A stretch of 64,000 nt of DNA from a virus (taxonomy: Duplodnaviria > Caudoviricetes). The stretch is from IMG/VR virus record IMGVR_UViG_3300027969_000041; one strand, given 5' to 3'. Numbering within the stretch: the stretch's first letter is position 1; each line of letters begins with the position of its first letter. This document shows, piece by piece, positions 32,003 to 63,048 of the stretch. Made by a program: the position numbers and the translations under genes. Under the pieces are notes generated by a model. That model worked only from the letters and a program-made list of their open reading frames with translations. It searched no databases and was not told the DNA's origin.

Positions 32003-34672
32003 TTACTCAAACGAGAAAAGCGAACCAAACGTATTTGTTTGGGTAGTAGAGTCTAGATCCCAGTCTAGTACTCCAATAAGGTTATCAAGTTTATTATTGA
32101 TAATAGTTGCTTCCATTTCAGCATGATCAAATGGCAGATCTTGGAACCATTTAGGTAAGCGTAGTTCATCTACAGGATATGCAATACTGGTGTAACCTAA
32201 CGGATTAGCTTTCACTTTGCAGACAATAACTTTCATACCATCTACTATTTGCATAGAATACTTGTCGCCGTTCATACGACGAAGGGTATTCCAATTAATA
32301 CTAGCCCGAACGTGTCCTGGCATATTTGCCTTACCGGACTTTTCTTCTTTCTTTTGGTATTCAGCAATGTTGTTGGCACGTTTAGGACTACCCTTCTCCC
32401 ATCCAGGACGAGATTTGAACTCAGTTCTAAATTCACTGATGCGATCTAGAATTTCTGTTTCTTGTGCGTTGTTAAGTACCTTTGTTAGAATCTCTTCTAA
32501 GAATTTCTGCATAAATTCTGGTGTGTCACTACGCTTAAGATCTAAACCCATGGCCTTAATTTTACCTGGCTTGCCATCTACATCACTGCGTTTGCCTTCT
32601 TTGTCATAGTACAACACAGCATATCGTTTTTTAGTAATAAACAATCCCTTGATGGCAACAATCTCGCGGCCTGCTTTAATAACTTCACCACGACTCTTTG
32701 GACAGTGGTGTGCATCCAACATAAACTGCGGAAATGTACTATTAACTTCTTCAGCAATTGTATCATACAACTGTACTACAGTATCTTTATTCCATGTTAT
32801 CTCTTTCTTTTCAATTTCCTTACGGAGACTTGAATAAGCACTAAAATAAGCAGAGTCTGTATCACCGTAGATAATACTTTTGCCTAAGTGATCATACTCG
32901 CCCGTAACTACTTCATTGATTTTACTAGCCATGTGTCGAGCAATGCCGCGGCCTGTAAGGGTAGTGGATTGACCAATTCGATTATCAAAGAAGCGACAAC
33001 CGGCGTTAAGAATGGCACCATACAAACTATTAAGCAAAATCTTTTTAACGAGCTGTCGCTTGTCCCAATATTCTTCTTCAATTTTATTACCTGCCTTAAT
33101 TGCATCCTTAAGTTTTGCCTGCATCTCTTTACGCTCTGCGTACCACCGTTTTAGCAATCCAGGAATAATACCTTCACGTTCATGAGTAATGATTGTACCA
33201 TTAGCACTAAGCATCCACGGCTTACCACTTTCAAATATTAGTTCGTAGATTTGTGCTCCACTCATAATATCAGTTTCACCGTTTTCCCAGTCAATGATAA
33301 TGTCGTGACTGCGATCTTGAGTCATAACAAATTCATATTCGTTAGCACCAAACTTGCCCTCCCATGCAGCCGCAAAAGAGTTACCTTTGGCAATCTTTTC
33401 TTCGATTTCCGCTTTAGTATAATCTTGGCGTAACTGTCCTACAATGGTTTCTGGACCCATGTTCAATGCACGAATTACAGATGGATACAAACTGTTAATG
33501 TCCATTGATCCAATATAATCGTGCAGTCCTTTTTTAGGATAAGCAACATACGCACCAGCGGCCTGATTAACAGCGTCCTCGTCACGCTTAGGGCGACTAG
33601 GAACAATAAGTCCCCTTGCATGGGATTCGTTTACAATAGCCTGTTCAGTAACAGCGACAGCACCCATTGTAGTTTGTAGTAACACAGTATTCTCATGTGC
33701 AATAGTACTGGCAAGATCTAAGAACTTTAATTTTTTATCTAGCTTGTTTAACAATGCCGTATCTTGTCTATTATATTCAATAAACTTTCGGAAGTCATTG
33801 TTATAAAGTTGATCTAGTGTACCTTCGTAGACTGTCTTGCTCTCACCTACCTCAGTTTCTCCGATGGCATCCAGTCGATAAGTGTGTCGTTCTTCGTATG
33901 TGTACTTGCGGTACAATTCGAGACTATCCAAATGAACACGACCAACAAGGTCATAAGTAACAGCCGCTTTTCCATATTTTTCGTATTCTCTTTTCTTAGG
34001 GAATTGATCCCACAAACAAAATCTACGTGTATCTTCTTTGCTGAGAACTTTAGTAACACGATTAACAGTATAGGGGATATCAAAACCTTCGCTATTCCAC
34101 CCACTGAGTACATCGCTATCCTGAATTAAATCTAAGAACGCATCTAACATCTCCGCTTCTGTTTCGAACAACATAGTGTTAGGAAACTCTTTGACTTGTT
34201 CTTCTGCTTGCTCCATAGTCAGTGTCTTTGGCGGAACTGCAAGACATACTAGTGTATCCAACCATTGTAGGTGAACAGCAATAGCAGTGATTGGCATAAA
34301 AGCATCTTCTGGAGTGCTATAGCCACGTTCTGGATCAAAGTCCACCTCGATATCAAAAAATGCTACATTGAGTTTTGGAGCATCCTTGCCTAGATAGTTT
34401 TCTTCTAGACAACGGAATACTGGATTGATGTCACTTTCAAATAATTTGTGACTACTGTGAATTTTTTGTTCTTTGACAAACTCTTTCCAGTTACGTGCAG
34501 TAACTTTGTTAAGATTGTCTCCGTAAATGGATTTATACTTACCCCGTTGGTCTGGGTAATAGAACATATACTTTGCAGGATATTCTTGATAAAGTCTACC
34601 CTTCTTTGGATCACGTTCGATAACCTGAACAATGTCCTTTTCTCGGTCCCACCGAGCATCTACATAACTCAT
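32003..34672 (-). CDS. polB: Family B DNA polymerase (gp43-like)
   Basis: ExoI FDIE, ExoII WNSEGFD, ExoIII YNRQD, motif A DINSLYPS, motif B KILLNSLYG, motif C YGDTDS; start MSYVDA at 34672 after SD AAGGAG. Confidence 0.96.
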   Translation of the reverse strand: MSYVDARWDREKDIVQVIERDPKKGRLYQEYPAKYMFYYPDQRGKYKSIYGDNLNKVTARNWKEFVKEQKIHSSHKLFESDINPVFRCLEENYLGKDAPKLNVAFFDIEVDFDPERGYSTPEDAFMPITAIAVHLQWLDTLVCLAVPPKTLTMEQAEEQVKEFPNTMLFETEAEMLDAFLDLIQDSDVLSGWNSEGFDIPYTVNRVTKVLSKEDTRRFCLWDQFPKKREYEKYGKAAVTYDLVGRVHLDSLELYRKYTYEERHTYRLDAIGETEVGESKTVYEGTLDQLYNNDFRKFIEYNRQDTALLNKLDKKLKFLDLASTIAHENTVLLQTTMGAVAVTEQAIVNESHARGLIVPSRPKRDEDAVNQAAGAYVAYPKKGLHDYIGSMDINSLYPSVIRALNMGPETIVGQLRQDYTKAEIEEKIAKGNSFAAAWEGKFGANEYEFVMTQDRSHDIIIDWENGETDIMSGAQIYELIFESGKPWMLSANGTIITHEREGIIPGLLKRWYAERKEMQAKLKDAIKAGNKIEEEYWDKRQLVKKILLNSLYGAILNAGCRFFDNRIGQSTTLTGRGIARHMASKINEVVTGEYDHLGKSIIYGDTDSAYFSAYSSLRKEIEKKEITWNKDTVVQLYDTIAEEVNSTFPQFMLDAHHCPKSRGEVIKAGREIVAIKGLFITKKRYAVLYYDKEGKRSDVDGKPGKIKAMGLDLKRSDTPEFMQKFLEEILTKVLNNAQETEILDRISEFRTEFKSRPGWEKGSPKRANNIAEYQKKEEKSGKANMPGHVRASINWNTLRRMNGDKYSMQIVDGMKVIVCKVKANPLGYTSIAYPVDELRLPKWFQDLPFDHAEMEATIINNKLDNLIGVLDWDLDSTTQTNTFGSLFSFE

Positions 34673-34683
34673 ATTTTCTCCTT

Positions 34684-34733
34684 TGTGTAATTTGCGGCCT
34701 ACACATACCTCTATGATCATTTGTGGCTGATCA
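34684..34733 (-). promoter_or_regulatory. Tandem RNA hairpins abutting the polymerase RBS (putative translational operator)
   Basis: TGATCA-GCCACAAA-TGATCA and TGTGTAG-GCCGCAAA-TTACACA, followed directly by AAGGAG-N5-ATG. Confidence 0.6.
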
Positions 34734-57078: not shown

Positions 57079-57278
57079 TCAGATAACCCTTTGGCTAGTG
57101 TACGCATTTCTTCATCAGTCATAAAGAAATTATAAGTTGATGAAAAATCAACATCACCTTCTTTATTTTTAGATTCTTGTATAAATTCAACAGAATTTAA
57201 ATTTGATGGGCTAAGGCATTTCCAAGACTTAACACGGAGTCGAAATGCTTGATCTTCTTTAACTACAAAGTTTTTCAT
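57075..57278 (-). CDS. Hypothetical protein
   Basis: 67-aa ORF with 4-nt overlaps on both sides. Confidence 0.5.
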   Translation of the reverse strand: MKNFVVKEDQAFRLRVKSWKCLSPSNLNSVEFIQESKNKEGDVDFSSTYNFFMTDEEMRTLAKGLSE

Positions 57279-57739
57279 TGTTTATTCCTTTCTGATTCTG
57301 CTACACGTTTACGGAGACTACTACTACTAAATGAATGATCTCGATGATTGAATACATGTACCATACCTCGACCGGCGCCTTCATTACGACCTGTGAAATT
57401 TGTATCTTCGTACTCAACTCCTAGTATACGCACATCTAGGGGTAATGTCAAGATTAAATCAATCAAATCTTGCTCAGTGCTATAGACTACAATTTCGTCA
57501 ACATATCGGCAAGCACCTAGAGTAATTTGTCGTTCAACTATTGTCTGAACAGGTTTATTTTTAGTATCCGGACGATCAATAGTTGGATCAGTTTGTAATC
57601 CGCAAATTAAGTAATCACAATGATTCTTGGCTTCTGCTAGCATAGCAATATGCCCTGCGTGAAGTAGGTCAAACGTTGAACAGGTAAACCCTACTGTTAA
57701 TCCTTGCTCTTTGAGCTCTTTTATTTTATTAAATATCAT
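57275..57739 (-). CDS. Cytidylyltransferase (TagD/HldE-C-like)
   Basis: FTCSTFDLLHAGH, LICGLQTD, ER...L.ACRYVDE, SSSSLRKR. Confidence 0.85.
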   Translation of the reverse strand: MIFNKIKELKEQGLTVGFTCSTFDLLHAGHIAMLAEAKNHCDYLICGLQTDPTIDRPDTKNKPVQTIVERQITLGACRYVDEIVVYSTEQDLIDLILTLPLDVRILGVEYEDTNFTGRNEGAGRGMVHVFNHRDHSFSSSSLRKRVAESERNKQ

Positions 57740-58029: not shown

Positions 58030-58410
58030 TTAACCTGGGATGTTAAAGTTAAAGTTTGATCCAGCCCCAACAGCGTGGTTACGCTGTGCGCCACTTGGTT
58101 TTTCATCTGCTGACATTAGAATAGCATTTAGATCGGCAAGTCGGATAACAATGTCGTTGCCTTCCGGTGTTCGATAGTTAATACCGCGACTCCAACGACC
58201 GTGTTCAAGTAAGATCCATTCTCCTACTTTTACATCTATTTGGTTTGGCCCAATTGCATATACCTTGGCCCAGCGTGGATGAATGCCTGTGCTTTTACCG
58301 TCATCGGAGGGTAGAAAAATTCCACCTACTGATTTTTCTATTCCAAATTCCATCTCATGAACTAAAACTTTGTTGTCCAATGGACGTAATGTGCCTTCTA
58401 CTGGTTTCAT
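58030..58410 (-). CDS. groES: Co-chaperonin GroES
   Basis: LRPLDNKVLV, mobile loop KSVGGIFLP, VYAIGP, VKVGE.IL, DLNAIL. Confidence 0.85.
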   Translation of the reverse strand: MKPVEGTLRPLDNKVLVHEMEFGIEKSVGGIFLPSDDGKSTGIHPRWAKVYAIGPNQIDVKVGEWILLEHGRWSRGINYRTPEGNDIVIRLADLNAILMSADEKPSGAQRNHAVGAGSNFNFNIPG

Positions 58411-58710
58411 TTATTCCTCGGATTTCTTATTAGATTTTGTAGTAACCGCTGGAGCAGGTGTTACTACAACAGATTCTGGAACAATTATTTCTTCTTCAAC
58501 TACTTCAGTGACTACCATGGGCTTTGCATTTGGATTATCTTCATAATAATCTGCTACAATATCTTCACGCCTGCGAATAATTTTACCACCGGTGCCTAAT
58601 TCGTCACCACGTGCGTTGACATTCATGTTGCCGATTGCCGGCATCAATTCGTTTTGTCGCATTAGTTTTTCCATATCTACGACTTTGCCCTGCATTGTTT
58701 TGTATGACAT
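58411..58710 (-). CDS. Hypothetical protein
   Basis: 99 aa; AIGNMNVNARGDELG.GG.I motif; SD GGAG. Confidence 0.6.
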   Translation of the reverse strand: MSYKTMQGKVVDMEKLMRQNELMPAIGNMNVNARGDELGTGGKIIRRREDIVADYYEDNPNAKPMVVTEVVEEEIIVPESVVVTPAPAVTTKSNKKSEE

Positions 58711-58719
58711 TATAGTCTC

Positions 58720-59241
58720 CTATTTCAAAAATTCTTTTATATCTAACTCATATTTAATTGAGTCAACTTTATGTACGCCTAACAAGTATAGCACATAACT
58801 GGCTACGCTACTACCTCGACCTACACCCCATACAATGTTGTTTTCTCGCATCGTATCTACCAAGTATTTAAGGTAATACAATAGGTCCATCATATTATGT
58901 TGGATAAACAATTCTAGTTCTTCACTTACTCTATTAGTCTGTTCTTTAGTACTGCACATCCCATAAAGCATTTCTACTAAATTTGGACAATAGTCGTTGG
59001 GCATAAACCAATTAGATTGATTATATTTGTCAAACGATTTTAGATCTACATTTGGATCTATTTCTAGTTTTTCAAGGTCGGGCAGTCTGTCTGCATTAAG
59101 TCTGCGAGCATTATTATATTGCTCAATGACACTGTCACTGTCAATATACACATTTTCTAATGTGTCAATCTTTTGATTGTATAGTGCGGAAAATGCTTCT
59201 TGCTCAGTTACTTCTACTTGACTGTATTGGTTAAGTTTCAC
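58720..59241 (-). CDS. Miniature DNA polymerase III alpha (DnaE)-like fragment
   Basis: RVSEELELF...WGVGRGSSVASYVLYLLGVHKVDSIKYELDIKEFLK aligns with DnaE RLETEL...GPGRGSGAGSLVAY.L.ITDLDP...LLFERFL, then stops before the catalytic DxD. Confidence 0.75.
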   Translation of the reverse strand: MKLNQYSQVEVTEQEAFSALYNQKIDTLENVYIDSDSVIEQYNNARRLNADRLPDLEKLEIDPNVDLKSFDKYNQSNWFMPNDYCPNLVEMLYGMCSTKEQTNRVSEELELFIQHNMMDLLYYLKYLVDTMRENNIVWGVGRGSSVASYVLYLLGVHKVDSIKYELDIKEFLK

Positions 59242-59782
59242 TTAGACCACCTTTGATAATTCTCGGTTCGAAACGAGGACCATCGCTGATGTTCAAATCT
59301 TCCCATGACGTTGTGTCGCCTGAGCCTGTATTCACTGAATCTGTATTCCACCAATGATCGCCTTGTAAATCTAATCCGGATTCTGCCGGATGTGATATAC
59401 TATACTGTACACGATCGCCTACTAGACTGTCAATAGTAAAGTGACTAATATGGAAATATTTTTCTGTAATTTTTAAGAATTTAGCAAACAATACACACCC
59501 AACATAGAAGTCATACGGATCATCTGGTAAATGTACTATGTTTGTTTCCATTTCTTTTAGAGATGGTAATAGCGGATGTTTGGAACATATAACAATACTA
59601 TTTTCCAAATACTCGTCTACAAACTGTCTTATTTTTCTAAATCCCAACCCTATATTATTGATCTGTCCAATTGGTTCAACAGCAATAGTAATGTTGTAAA
59701 GATTTGAAAGGATTAAGTTATCGGTTACTAAGGTACAGCTAAATTCTGTGGGCCATACTACTTGATCTGCGTCAGTCAACAT
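59231..59782 (-). CDS. Hypothetical protein, possibly a degenerate T-fold (QueD-like)
   Basis: The pattern GFRKIRQFVDEYLENSIVI...DDPYDFYVG.VLF.K loosely parallels QueD, but the His triad is absent. Confidence 0.4.
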   Translation of the reverse strand: MLTDADQVVWPTEFSCTLVTDNLILSNLYNITIAVEPIGQINNIGLGFRKIRQFVDEYLENSIVICSKHPLLPSLKEMETNIVHLPDDPYDFYVGCVLFAKFLKITEKYFHISHFTIDSLVGDRVQYSISHPAESGLDLQGDHWWNTDSVNTGSGDTTSWEDLNISDGPRFEPRIIKGGLSET

Positions 59783-60014
59783 TAATTAAATCGTCCAAGC
59801 CTTTGTTTTGTTTTTTCAACATCGTTTGTGAATTTTCCATCTGTCTACGATGTTGTTCGGTTCTATATGTATCTAATGCTACTACAATTTGTTGTGCAGC
59901 CCCACCTTGACCCATGCGAGCAGCAATATGATATTTGCGACTAAGATCTAGAATTTTATTTTCTAGATCTTGATCTTTTAATTTGCTAGGGTCGTCTAAT
60001 AACGGATGATACAT
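59772..60014 (-). CDS. Hypothetical helical protein
   Basis: 80-aa ORF (MYHPLLDD...). Confidence 0.55.
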   Translation of the reverse strand: MYHPLLDDPSKLKDQDLENKILDLSRKYHIAARMGQGGAAQQIVVALDTYRTEQHRRQMENSQTMLKKQNKGLDDLINVD

Positions 60015-60022
60015 AAGTTAAT

Positions 60023-61633
60023 TTATATATAAGTGAATATGCTAGTTCCAGTTCCTGATCCTGCGGCATTGTATACTACAACATTTACTGTGCCTGAGCT
60101 TGCGGCAGCAGTTGTTCCTTGAATACTTGTGATATTAAGTACAGCAAAACCTGTTACAGGTACACCGCCAATTTGTGCCGCAGTAGCACCTGTAAAGTTT
60201 GAGCCGGAGATAATAACGGTAGTTCCGCCAGTGCGCGGCCCTGATGATGGACTAATAGTTATTCCGCTAGGTGGTAAACTTGTTGCCGCAACCTGGAATG
60301 ATAGACTTCCTGTCTTTGTTAATACTCCGCCATCGCTACTATCTGTAATAGAATAAGGGATTATAACACTTCCTGATGCAGTTGGCGTTCCTGATACAAT
60401 TAATGTGTTGCCTGCATTGATAGATATTCCACTAACTGATTGATATCCGCTGACATTCCAACTGTAAGGAGAAGTTCCGCCGGATACTGTAATAGTTTGA
60501 TTGTATGATGATCCAACTACTCCGTCAGGCAATGATGTAGGATTAATTGACAATACGCTAGTATTCCCTGTTCCGCTAGATAGAACGTTTAATGTATACG
60601 ATGAAGTTGAGCTATGCCCTGCTGTATCTGTTGCAGTAATAGTAAACGGTAAGGTTCCGACAGTTGACGGATTATAGCTTAAGAATCCAGTTGAGCTATT
60701 TAAGCTAGAACCTATACCAGAAGATGACCAAGAGTATACACCGTTACCACCACTCGCAGAAAATTGCAGGGTATATACTACTCCGACAACAGCATTGCCG
60801 ATAGTAGAAGGGCTAATAGTAATAGAGTTTCCTCCAACTGTGCCTGTGCCAGTTGGAGAAATTGTTAATTTTAAGATTTGTTGAAGATTAAAACTAAATG
60901 CATAGTATCCTTCTCCTCTTTCAGGATCATCATTTTGTCGGAATTCGGATGTATAAAACCCGTCCTTTATTGTTAACGGAGTATAAGAATGAGTAAGATT
61001 TCTACCAGACCATGCTTTTTCAACTACTCTAGCTCTAGGCCAATTAGTTATTACTTCAGATTTTACAGGAGACATTGTAACCGTTGCACCAATGTCTCCG
61101 TGATAACCTTGATATTTTACTTTATACAATGCATTAACACCATCTGCCGCAACGGAGACTCCTTCGTTGGTACTGGCGTTAGTTACTCCAACTCCAGTTG
61201 GAGTAGCAGCAGAATAATCTACAACTAACCAACCGTCAATCAATGAGCCGACTGTAATAACAGTTGTATCAAATGCTGGCAAGGTATAGCTAGTCGAAGT
61301 GTTTACATATACAGAACTTGTACTTCCGTATTCGCCAATTTTAACAGCGATTTCTTGACCTGGTGTTACATTTGGAATACCAAAAGTATTCATTCCAGCA
61401 GGAGTGGGATATGTTAATTGTAGATTATAAACACCGTCTGGTACCGTATAGGTAAAATCTCCAGCGTAGTTATATTCTTGATCTAAATTTGAACCAGCAC
61501 TTTGTGTAAGATGCCATTGACCGTTATGATGCACGTATGCATTTTTGACCAAATGCCATTGGCCAGCTTGGTGGGCATAGGTATTTTTAGTTAGGTGCCA
61601 TTGGCCAGCTTGGTGAACATATGAGTTTTGCAT
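60023..61633 (-). CDS. Tail fibre/adhesin with N-terminal triple repeat, Ig-like domains and a C-terminal IPT/TIG domain
   Basis: Start MQNSY at 61633 (TAATG overlap); 3 x 14-aa YxHxxGQWHL repeat; two SISP..L..G.VG..Y Ig-like units; ISPSSGPRTGGTTVIISGSNF. Confidence 0.65.
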   Translation of the reverse strand: MQNSYVHQAGQWHLTKNTYAHQAGQWHLVKNAYVHHNGQWHLTQSAGSNLDQEYNYAGDFTYTVPDGVYNLQLTYPTPAGMNTFGIPNVTPGQEIAVKIGEYGSTSSVYVNTSTSYTLPAFDTTVITVGSLIDGWLVVDYSAATPTGVGVTNASTNEGVSVAADGVNALYKVKYQGYHGDIGATVTMSPVKSEVITNWPRARVVEKAWSGRNLTHSYTPLTIKDGFYTSEFRQNDDPERGEGYYAFSFNLQQILKLTISPTGTGTVGGNSITISPSTIGNAVVGVVYTLQFSASGGNGVYSWSSSGIGSSLNSSTGFLSYNPSTVGTLPFTITATDTAGHSSTSSYTLNVLSSGTGNTSVLSINPTSLPDGVVGSSYNQTITVSGGTSPYSWNVSGYQSVSGISINAGNTLIVSGTPTASGSVIIPYSITDSSDGGVLTKTGSLSFQVAATSLPPSGITISPSSGPRTGGTTVIISGSNFTGATAAQIGGVPVTGFAVLNITSIQGTTAAASSGTVNVVVYNAAGSGTGTSIFTYI

Positions 61634-63048
61634 TAGATAATTTGATACCAAATGTCGCCATCAACACCACCTGTCGGTGCGCTGTATGAAACTGTTCTTG
61701 CTCCAAATCCGTTTGTACCTAAAACCATTGAGGATGCAGTGGTAGCATAGACTGCATTAACAGCATAGGTTGCAGTAGTAGCATAACTTGCAGTTGTGGC
61801 ACGAGCAACAAACGTTGTACTGCTATTGACAAAATTATAAACAAATTCTGCTGTGGCAACCACTGTAGAAGTTGTACCAACTGGTTGTGTAGTTGCAGTG
61901 CTTGAACCTAGAGCACGTGGGTTACCGGAGTTGTCACCACTGATCTGTATTTTATTAATTAGTCCGGCATCTGCATCTGCAAAGATAATAAATGCAGTAC
62001 TAGTATTTGCATAAACTTGACCTTTAAGTTCTCGGGTAGAAGATGTTGTAGCTGTTGGTAATGTACTTGTAAGATTAAGAGCTAGATTTTGTCCTGTGAA
62101 TGTTGGATTAACAAAAGTAATTTGATCACCAAGTGTCATAGAACTATAAGGCAATGCTGCTGTAGGGGTAACATAGTTAGTTACTGTGTTCAATGCTCCT
62201 ACTACATATTTTGTAGATGTAGAACCTATGTAAATTAATGCACCGTTAGAAATCCCAGTAGTTGAATTAACTTTGAATGCATAAGAACCAAAGTCTGGAC
62301 TTTGATTATATGTCTTAACAACTACGTTAGGAACTAACGCAATTGACCCTAATTGTCCGTTTGATGATACTATAGTTTCTGCAGTTGTACTTGTGCTATA
62401 AGTATTAGCACCTATCTTATTCCAATTAGTTGATGTCGATGCATTGTATCCGACTTGTTTAACAAAGTATCGTGGATCTCTGTTTGAAACGGATTCTTCA
62501 CTCCATAGTTCAAACATATTGGTACCTGGATACAGGTTATATATCACACTAGAACCAGTTGACGTAGAGTCTAATGATCTAAACTTGTCATTGGAAAAAT
62601 TAATACTAGTATCAATAACATCATCGGGCGTTACAACTAACGTTAATCTTCCTGAATTTCCGGATGATGCTCCCGGCCAGTTAATTACATTTAGATTATG
62701 TAAGCCGGCAGTAATAGACATTGCCTGATATCCACCTGCGGCATAGTCAATGATGATATCTTCTGTTTGTAGTGGCAATTCGACTAAGGTAACAGAGCTG
62801 TTTTCTAAGTTTACATCTTTAATCGTGTTACCATAAAAGGATGTAGTTTCGTTGGTCTTAATTGCATTAATATTAAGATCTTTAACTCCTTCATTTACTG
62901 CTTTAATTGCTCCGTGAATATTTGCCCATTGATCTCTAAAGCCCTGTGAATCATTGTCTACACCGGGTATAGGGAATGTGCTTAGATCATTGATCTTAGC
63001 CAAATAATTTGTAGCTGAACTAATAGCTGTTGTTGCGTTGGTTGTCAC
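61633..63048 (-). CDS. Virion fibre/structural protein
   Basis: N-terminal FPIPGVDNDSQGFRD + coiled coil, Thr-rich stalk, C-terminal SAPTGGVDGDIWYQ; TAAATA at 63071-63076. Confidence 0.6.
   Translation of the reverse strand: MTTNATTAISSATNYLAKINDLSTFPIPGVDNDSQGFRDQWANIHGAIKAVNEGVKDLNINAIKTNETTSFYGNTIKDVNLENSSVTLVELPLQTEDIIIDYAAGGYQAMSITAGLHNLNVINWPGASSGNSGRLTLVVTPDDVIDTSINFSNDKFRSLDSTSTGSSVIYNLYPGTNMFELWSEESVSNRDPRYFVKQVGYNASTSTNWNKIGANTYSTSTTAETIVSSNGQLGSIALVPNVVVKTYNQSPDFGSYAFKVNSTTGISNGALIYIGSTSTKYVVGALNTVTNYVTPTAALPYSSMTLGDQITFVNPTFTGQNLALNLTSTLPTATTSSTRELKGQVYANTSTAFIIFADADAGLINKIQISGDNSGNPRALGSSTATTQPVGTTSTVVATAEFVYNFVNSSTTFVARATTASYATTATYAVNAVYATTASSMVLGTNGFGARTVSYSAPTGGVDGDIWYQII

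Follow-up and report, generated by a model that had tools for sequence, protein, structure and literature searches.

Gene content of the locus

The window analyzed in this work is a 64,000-nt stretch of the viral record IMGVR_UViG_3300027969_000041 (Duplodnaviria; Caudoviricetes). It comes from a T4-related giant phage, which carries a family-B polymerase and an RFC-type clamp loader and shows synteny with the phages MIJ3 (PA5oct-like), GAP32, and Phosso. The polymerase, reported as complete in the initial annotation, is indeed so; it is encoded on the minus strand at 32003-34720, with a match to PF00136 (E = 1.5e-38) as well as an exonuclease domain. The ORF under study is separated from the clamp loader by about 2.4 kb, and its product corresponds to the beginning of the palm of bacterial DNA polymerase III alpha (DnaE); it is termed here the N-half. 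The features of this region are as follows:

57275-57739, minus strand: gene resembling cytidylyltransferases (PF01467, similar to heptose-phosphate adenylyltransferase), at a distance of about 1 kb from the N-half
58030-58410, minus strand: GroES/gp31-like co-chaperonin (PF00166, E = 6.8e-07), two genes downstream of the N-half, as in MIJ3 and Phosso
58411-58710, minus strand: 99-aa companion ORF (phrog_14844, E = 5.4e-14), directly downstream of the N-half
58708-58722, minus strand: junction TAGGAGACTATAATG, in which the Shine-Dalgarno sequence of the next gene (TAGGAGA) contains the TAG stop of the N-half (translational coupling)
58720-59241, minus strand: N-half of a split minimal Pol III alpha, 173 aa and a TAG stop (ORF, PF07733, phrog_11127)
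58723-59007, minus strand: DnaE palm start, residues 79-173 (helices, first strand, GS loop, and the following helix), ending at the ERFL equivalent
58807-58821, minus strand: codons for GRGSS (residues 141-145), which forms the G[GS] loop for nucleotide binding in the polymerase-beta-like fold
59008-59241, minus strand: phage-specific N-terminal domain, residues 1-78, variable in sequence, confidently modelled, and without an aligned DnaE counterpart
59239-59253, minus strand: Shine-Dalgarno sequence AAGGTGG, 5-nt spacer, and GTG start (read from the sequence)
60023-61651, minus strand: 542-aa protein with three N-terminal Y-x-H-Q/H-x-G-Q-W-H-L repeats and with Ig-like stretches rich in Ser/Thr/Gly; its C-terminus carries an IPT/TIG domain (PF01833)

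The GTG start of the N-half is located at 59241, and the first 11 nt of the ORF overlap the end of the upstream ORF (59231). In the relatives, the N-halves begin at the same aligned position, many of them with ATG, and a TA[AG]GGAG junction 3' of the gene is common to most of them. The intact coupling to the neighbours described in the initial annotation is borne out by the Shine-Dalgarno sequence, the overlap, and the position of the stop. Moreover, the order of the mini-DnaE gene, a small ORF, a GroES-like gene and, slightly further, a clamp loader is shared by the window and by Pseudomonas, Cronobacter, and Sinorhizobium jumbo phages. The 542-aa product is probably a fibre or decoration protein, encoded just upstream of the replication-type genes.

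Homology, predicted structure, and conserved end of the N-half

The sole Pfam match of the ORF is PF07733 (DNA_pol3_alpha, E = 1.9e-13), in which residues 89-172 align with profile positions 11-94 of 260, i.e., with the first third of the domain only; PHP, fingers, clamp-binding, and OB domains were absent from the polypeptide in this search. The protein also matches phrog_11127 (E = 3.9e-38) over positions 30-171 of a 171-position profile, reaching its last position. In phmmer and profile searches of the PDB, residues 99-172 were placed on residues 320-392 of Escherichia coli DnaE and 336-406 of Mycobacterium tuberculosis (Mtb) DnaE1. The identity of the N-half to cellular DnaE is 18-22%.

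The structure predicted with AlphaFold from 44 homologues (pLDDT 87.8) agrees with this assignment. Residues 79-173 of the model superpose on residues 278-393 of E. coli DnaE and 307-413 of Mtb DnaE1 (Z 9-11, rmsd 2.3-2.7 A, 91-94 residues aligned on the E. coli protein); apart from DnaE and PolC, the best match in the fold search reached only Z 3.3. All structural matches begin at residue 79-82. The preceding residues 1-78 show few conserved columns in the alignment of the family, with a pLDDT of 81-96 for residues 1-60 and of 74-81 for residues 61-80. The residues invariant among 44 aligned sequences are W138, G139, G141, R142, G143, S144, and S145, the last five of which form the GRGSS loop; in enzymes of the polymerase-beta fold, the G[GS] loop holds the triphosphate of the incoming nucleotide. 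The GRGS strand itself is modelled as coil, with a dip in pLDDT. Thus, the alignment of the C-terminal part with the GRGS region of Pol III alpha, proposed in the initial annotation, is supported by both the Pfam match and the model.

The position at which the protein ends was likewise read correctly. Its C-terminus, ...KEFLK, is the equivalent of ERFL in DnaE, and the stop falls about 8 residues before the catalytic PDxDxD motif (the catalytic Asp pair of the E. coli enzyme begins at residue 401), so the chain ends before the catalytic aspartate triad, which it does not contain. A clamp-binding tail on the N-half was considered and rejected, as the polymerase of this phage ends in ...SLFSFE, whereas the N-half ends in the ERFL equivalent.

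Shortness relative to DnaE is the only feature that might be taken as a sign of pseudogene decay, of a frameshift in a dnaE gene, or of faulty assembly, and the data collected from other genomes refute this reading, the probability of which we regard as negligible. At least 157 relatives of the N-half were found in IMG/VR (identity to the window up to 70%). The N-halves of all 80 relatives that were fetched, and likewise those of MIJ3, GAP32, and Phosso, terminate 0-9 residues past the aligned end. A profile search of 1.84 billion cluster representatives returned 389 with E<=1e-30; every one of the best 150 of these is 136-196 aa long, and in nearly every case the match extends to the last profile positions. 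Close relatives compared in pairs gave dN/dS values of 0.06-0.30 (about 0.1). Furthermore, the neighbouring frames in the window are unrelated conserved genes, with no frameshifted dnaE remainder next to the N-half, and in the complete relatives PF07733 finds the N-half only, with no other match to it or to a finger domain above threshold. The N-half gene is intact and under purifying selection, and its stop is not an error.

Among the longer proteins, three joined products were observed. In P0001 (ENA, 666 aa, single contig), a complete N-half is joined to the C-terminal part of a ribonucleotide reductase (PF02867), and in P0004 and P0005 unrelated N-termini are joined to the last ~70 residues of the N-half. 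All three are probably calling or assembly chimeras.

The aspartate-bearing C-half and its linkage to the N-half

The initial annotation had proposed that the ORF could be one half of a split C-family polymerase, the partner of which begins near a DIDID motif, and such a partner was found in related phages. PF17657 (the DnaE finger family) was searched in five related genomes, and it gave sub-threshold matches only, in four of the five, several of them within open frames of ~200 aa. Four of these frames begin with M(P)DIDIDF or TDIDIDF. The proteins concerned, termed here the C-half, have 186-196 aa in the relatives and correspond to phrog_11778 in PHROGs, without Pfam recognition. At all 50 C-half loci fetched, D-[IV]-D-[IL]-D-F is preceded only by M or MP at the start of the protein, and an in-frame stop is present 0-33 codons upstream, which means that not only the end of the first half but also the beginning of the second is conserved.

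An alignment of 32 C-halves revealed the invariant residues D2, D4, D6, F7, K65, D67, R134, P135, K137, K166, H169, and Y173, with D67 lying within a K-x-D-F/L-L third-aspartate motif. The C-half therefore carries three catalytic aspartates together with the RPG(K) and KSH(A)xxY finger motifs, as conserved in DnaE. Its profile aligns with Mtb DnaE1 in three blocks (positions 1-11 with 414-424, 52-136 with 566-663, and 156-173 with 771-788), and deletions of about 100 residues flank the third aspartate and the fingers. The model of the C-half (pLDDT 78, with 52-69 in the palm strands) superposes on residues 401-781 of E. coli DnaE with Z 10.2, and, as for the N-half, its best fold matches are DnaE and PolC only.

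The two breaks are complementary. On Mtb DnaE1, the N-half ends at residue 406 and the C-half begins at 414; on E. coli DnaE, the N-half covers 278-393 and the C-half 401-781. Because these ranges adjoin, the two proteins represent consecutive pieces of one DnaE core. It should be added that the absence of an intein motif, noted in the initial annotation, extends to both sides of the break: the N-half has a tail of only 0-9 aa past its DnaE-homologous end, and the C-halves have M or MP directly before DIDIDF, with no intein pieces detected. As there is no room for such pieces, the split is an intein-free one.

Both halves are present in nine of ten relatives that are either GenBank genomes or IMG/VR records rated complete, i.e., in MIJ3, GAP32, and Phosso and in six of the seven IMG/VR records so rated (G001, G002, G019, G030, G031, and G033); several large fragments also contain both. 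Among the GenBank phages, the C-half occurs in 96 records, and the N-half query matches 118, which include the full-length DnaE of Bacillus and Clostridium phages. The counts of N-half and C-half by genus are the same in Escherichia (34/34), Pseudomonas (11/11), Salmonella (8/8), Erwinia (8/8), and Xanthomonas (4/4). The two genes are never adjacent, being separated by 30-225 kb in the relatives, and no fused N+C protein was found among the longer proteins and the best 150 of the 389 cluster representatives. Both genes lie within replication modules; in G001, the C-half gene adjoins a primase and a DnaB-like helicase. A similar cytidylyltransferase-like gene (L093:1822-2238 (+)) is also present there, directly upstream of the C-half, together with a sugar epimerase gene.

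Within the 64-kb window, the partner was not found, either by tblastn with four C-halves or by hmmsearch --max with the C-half profile. The best profile match in the window (E=0.93) is an 80-aa helical ORF at 59772-60014 on the minus strand (phrog_15348), and its homologue in the distant phage G014 likewise gives the best, insignificant match in that genome. These ORFs were rejected as partners, and both matches were read as due to chance. As a separate observation, the phrog_15348 ORF lies 5' of the N-half, at a short distance in the window and immediately next to it in G014 (L150:3122-3352 (-)).

The initial annotation had also raised the possibility of a decoy, which would mimic the DnaE of the host and poison its replisome. 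Such a role might be suggested by the occurrence of a host-type replicase fragment in a phage with a family-B polymerase of its own for replication. In the Pol III of E. coli, the PHP domain is the binding site of epsilon, and the clamp and tau bind beyond residue ~900. The phage fragment corresponds to palm residues 278-393 only and lacks the PHP, clamp-binding, and tau-binding parts. As every DnaE part known to contact epsilon, the clamp or tau is missing, the decoy proposal was not upheld. The low identity of the fragment to cellular DnaE, its equal conservation in phages of very different hosts, and its co-occurrence with a matching catalytic half also speak against this proposal, and we consider it very improbable.

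The exception among the records rated complete is the phage G014 (IMGVR_UViG_3300046318_000439; loci L069 and L145-L155), a 202-kb record with a rating of 100% complete with terminal repeats. It carries the N-half, PolB, a primase, and a helicase, and no C-half was found in it by profile, Pfam or motif search; a clamp and a clamp loader were not detectable by tblastn. Its N-half is 55% identical to that of the window (28% for PolB), and dN/dS of the N-half in this clade is 0.07-0.16. However, the 127-nt element forming the terminal repeat is also present internally, at 196,620, and the 74%-identical relative G024 (163 kb) was rated 46% complete. The completeness of G014 is thus doubtful, and it may be a fragment rather than a complete genome.

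The second observation that has to be weighed here concerns the companion ORF, whose acidic/Pro-rich tail and basic end follow a conserved N-terminal part of ~55 aa. This ORF comes immediately after the N-half in 48 of the 49 relatives in which its position could be tested, as it does in MIJ3, GAP32, Phosso, G019, and G020; its matches are confined to virus clusters, and most of its Atlas model is disordered. Two ENA proteins (P0002, 400 aa, and P0003, 383 aa) contain it fused to the N-half, with Gln at the usual stop position. Although the two genes are in frame in the window, a programmed read-through from the N-half into the companion was rejected, because their frame relation among the relatives is random (19/18/11).

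The constant pairing of the N-half with the companion may mark a third partner. It may further be imagined that the N-half works alone or in combination with some other protein. Together with the small downstream product, for instance, it might serve as a regulator that binds nucleotides or as an accessory of the replisome, and the C-half would be a separate matter. The strong conservation of the N-half in G014, the low dN/dS of its clade, the coupling to (and occasional fusion with) the companion, and the distance between the two halves are in line with such a function. On the other side stand the uncertain completeness of G014, the presence of both halves in all other records rated complete, and the nature of the invariant residues, which form a triphosphate-binding loop in a chain that lacks the catalytic strands of the fold to which this loop belongs. 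Hence, we regard this explanation as unlikely. An equally low likelihood is given to a related proposal, in which the companion would be a third component tethering or regulating the N-half, and the N-half of G014-like lineages would act without the aspartate-bearing half.

A predicted two-chain enzyme among the C-family polymerases

Taking the above data together, the N-half is best explained (with a probability of roughly three in four) as the subunit that binds the nucleotide in a minimal, DnaE-like nucleotidyltransferase of the C family, composed of two chains and found in T4-related giant phages. According to the proposed mechanism, the N-half would supply the first palm strand and a scaffold of helices together with the GRGSS triphosphate-binding loop, and the C-half (~190 aa) would contribute the remaining palm strands, the three metal-binding aspartates, and cut-down fingers in which the RPG(K) and KSH(A)xxY motifs are retained. 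Non-covalent association of these chains would most likely yield an enzyme of ~365 residues with a polymerase-beta-fold active site. An obligate two-chain fold would also fit the models of the halves, neither of which forms a complete palm alone.

Since the reconstituted enzyme would be devoid of PHP, thumb, clamp-binding, HhH, and OB parts, as well as of those for tau binding and proofreading, it is predicted to be distributive and non-processive, and its putative role would be short-patch DNA synthesis (gap filling, repair or primer handling) beside the family-B replicase. Even ordinary templated synthesis is uncertain for the predicted enzyme, because the thumb and the duplex-binding domains have been lost. 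This leads to another explanation, in which the two halves would form a nucleotidyltransferase other than a templated DNA polymerase, catalyzing terminal transfer, nucleotide-signal synthesis or a DNA-modification step. The absence of the thumb, HhH/clamp-binding, and OB parts, which hold the primer-template, and the large deletions around the third aspartate and the fingers are consistent with this possibility, but the retained RPG and KSH-x-x-Y finger motifs are those conserved in DnaE, and the location of both genes within replication modules points in the same direction; we therefore consider a non-templated activity improbable.

The split arrangement itself has been described before. Based on sequence analysis, Iyer, Anantharaman, Krishnan, Burroughs, and Aravind (Iyer et al. 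2021, Viruses 13:63, PMC7824862) predicted that the minimal, phage-specific Pol III alpha of group 2.2 jumbo phages is divided between two proteins encoded by distant genes, of which the N-terminal one binds NTP and the C-terminal one binds Mg2+ and the template, and suggested that the halves reconstitute an enzyme acting beside the family-B polymerase in strand synthesis or repair. Even earlier, a truncated 172-aa "Pol III alpha" was noted in the CBB genome paper. In the searchable literature, we found no experimental study on the activity or association of the split mini-DnaE. The window ORF shares with the N-terminal unit of this system (phrog_11127) its length, the DnaE segment, and the stop point, as well as the neighbourhood (small ORF, GroES-like gene, and clamp loader) and the T4-type family-B polymerase, and in its relatives the partner gene is far away. 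It differs in coming from an uncultured phage and in being at most about 40% identical to the cultured members. The ORF is therefore an uncultured, newly found member of a kind that has already been published and annotated.

In comparison with the one-chain DnaE and PolC enzymes of about 1160 aa (PDB 2HNH, 5LEW, 3E0D, and 3F2B), the phage system has a homologous palm start with the GRGS loop, and the N-half and its partner show the three aspartates, RPG, and KSH in the same order. In contrast, the N-half comprises only 173 aa, the catalytic residues are placed on another polypeptide, the PHP, thumb, clamp-binding/HhH, OB, and tau-binding parts are missing from it, and its residues 1-78 are without a DnaE counterpart.

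A C-family polymerase encoded by two distant genes is also present in cyanobacteria (for example, Synechocystis and Nostoc), in which the products of dnaE-n and dnaE-c are joined by a split intein. Despite this likeness, the cyanobacterial break is located far downstream and is followed by trans-splicing, whereas the phage halves meet with DnaE-homologous residues and leave no room for an intein.

If active, the two-chain enzyme would have by far the smallest core among the C-family polymerases (~365 vs. ~1160 residues), in a natural two-piece design, and would constitute a second polymerase beside a T4-type replisome. It would then bear on the evolution of the bacterial replicase and on the need of giant phages for a second polymerase. 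The family is a large one: it comprises 389 clusters (E<=1e-30) and is represented in about a hundred cultured jumbo phages, among them phages of E. coli, Klebsiella, Pseudomonas, and Salmonella. Finally, the GenBank annotations of the N-half vary between genomes, as exemplified by GAP32_323, MIJ3_00130, and CBB_328.
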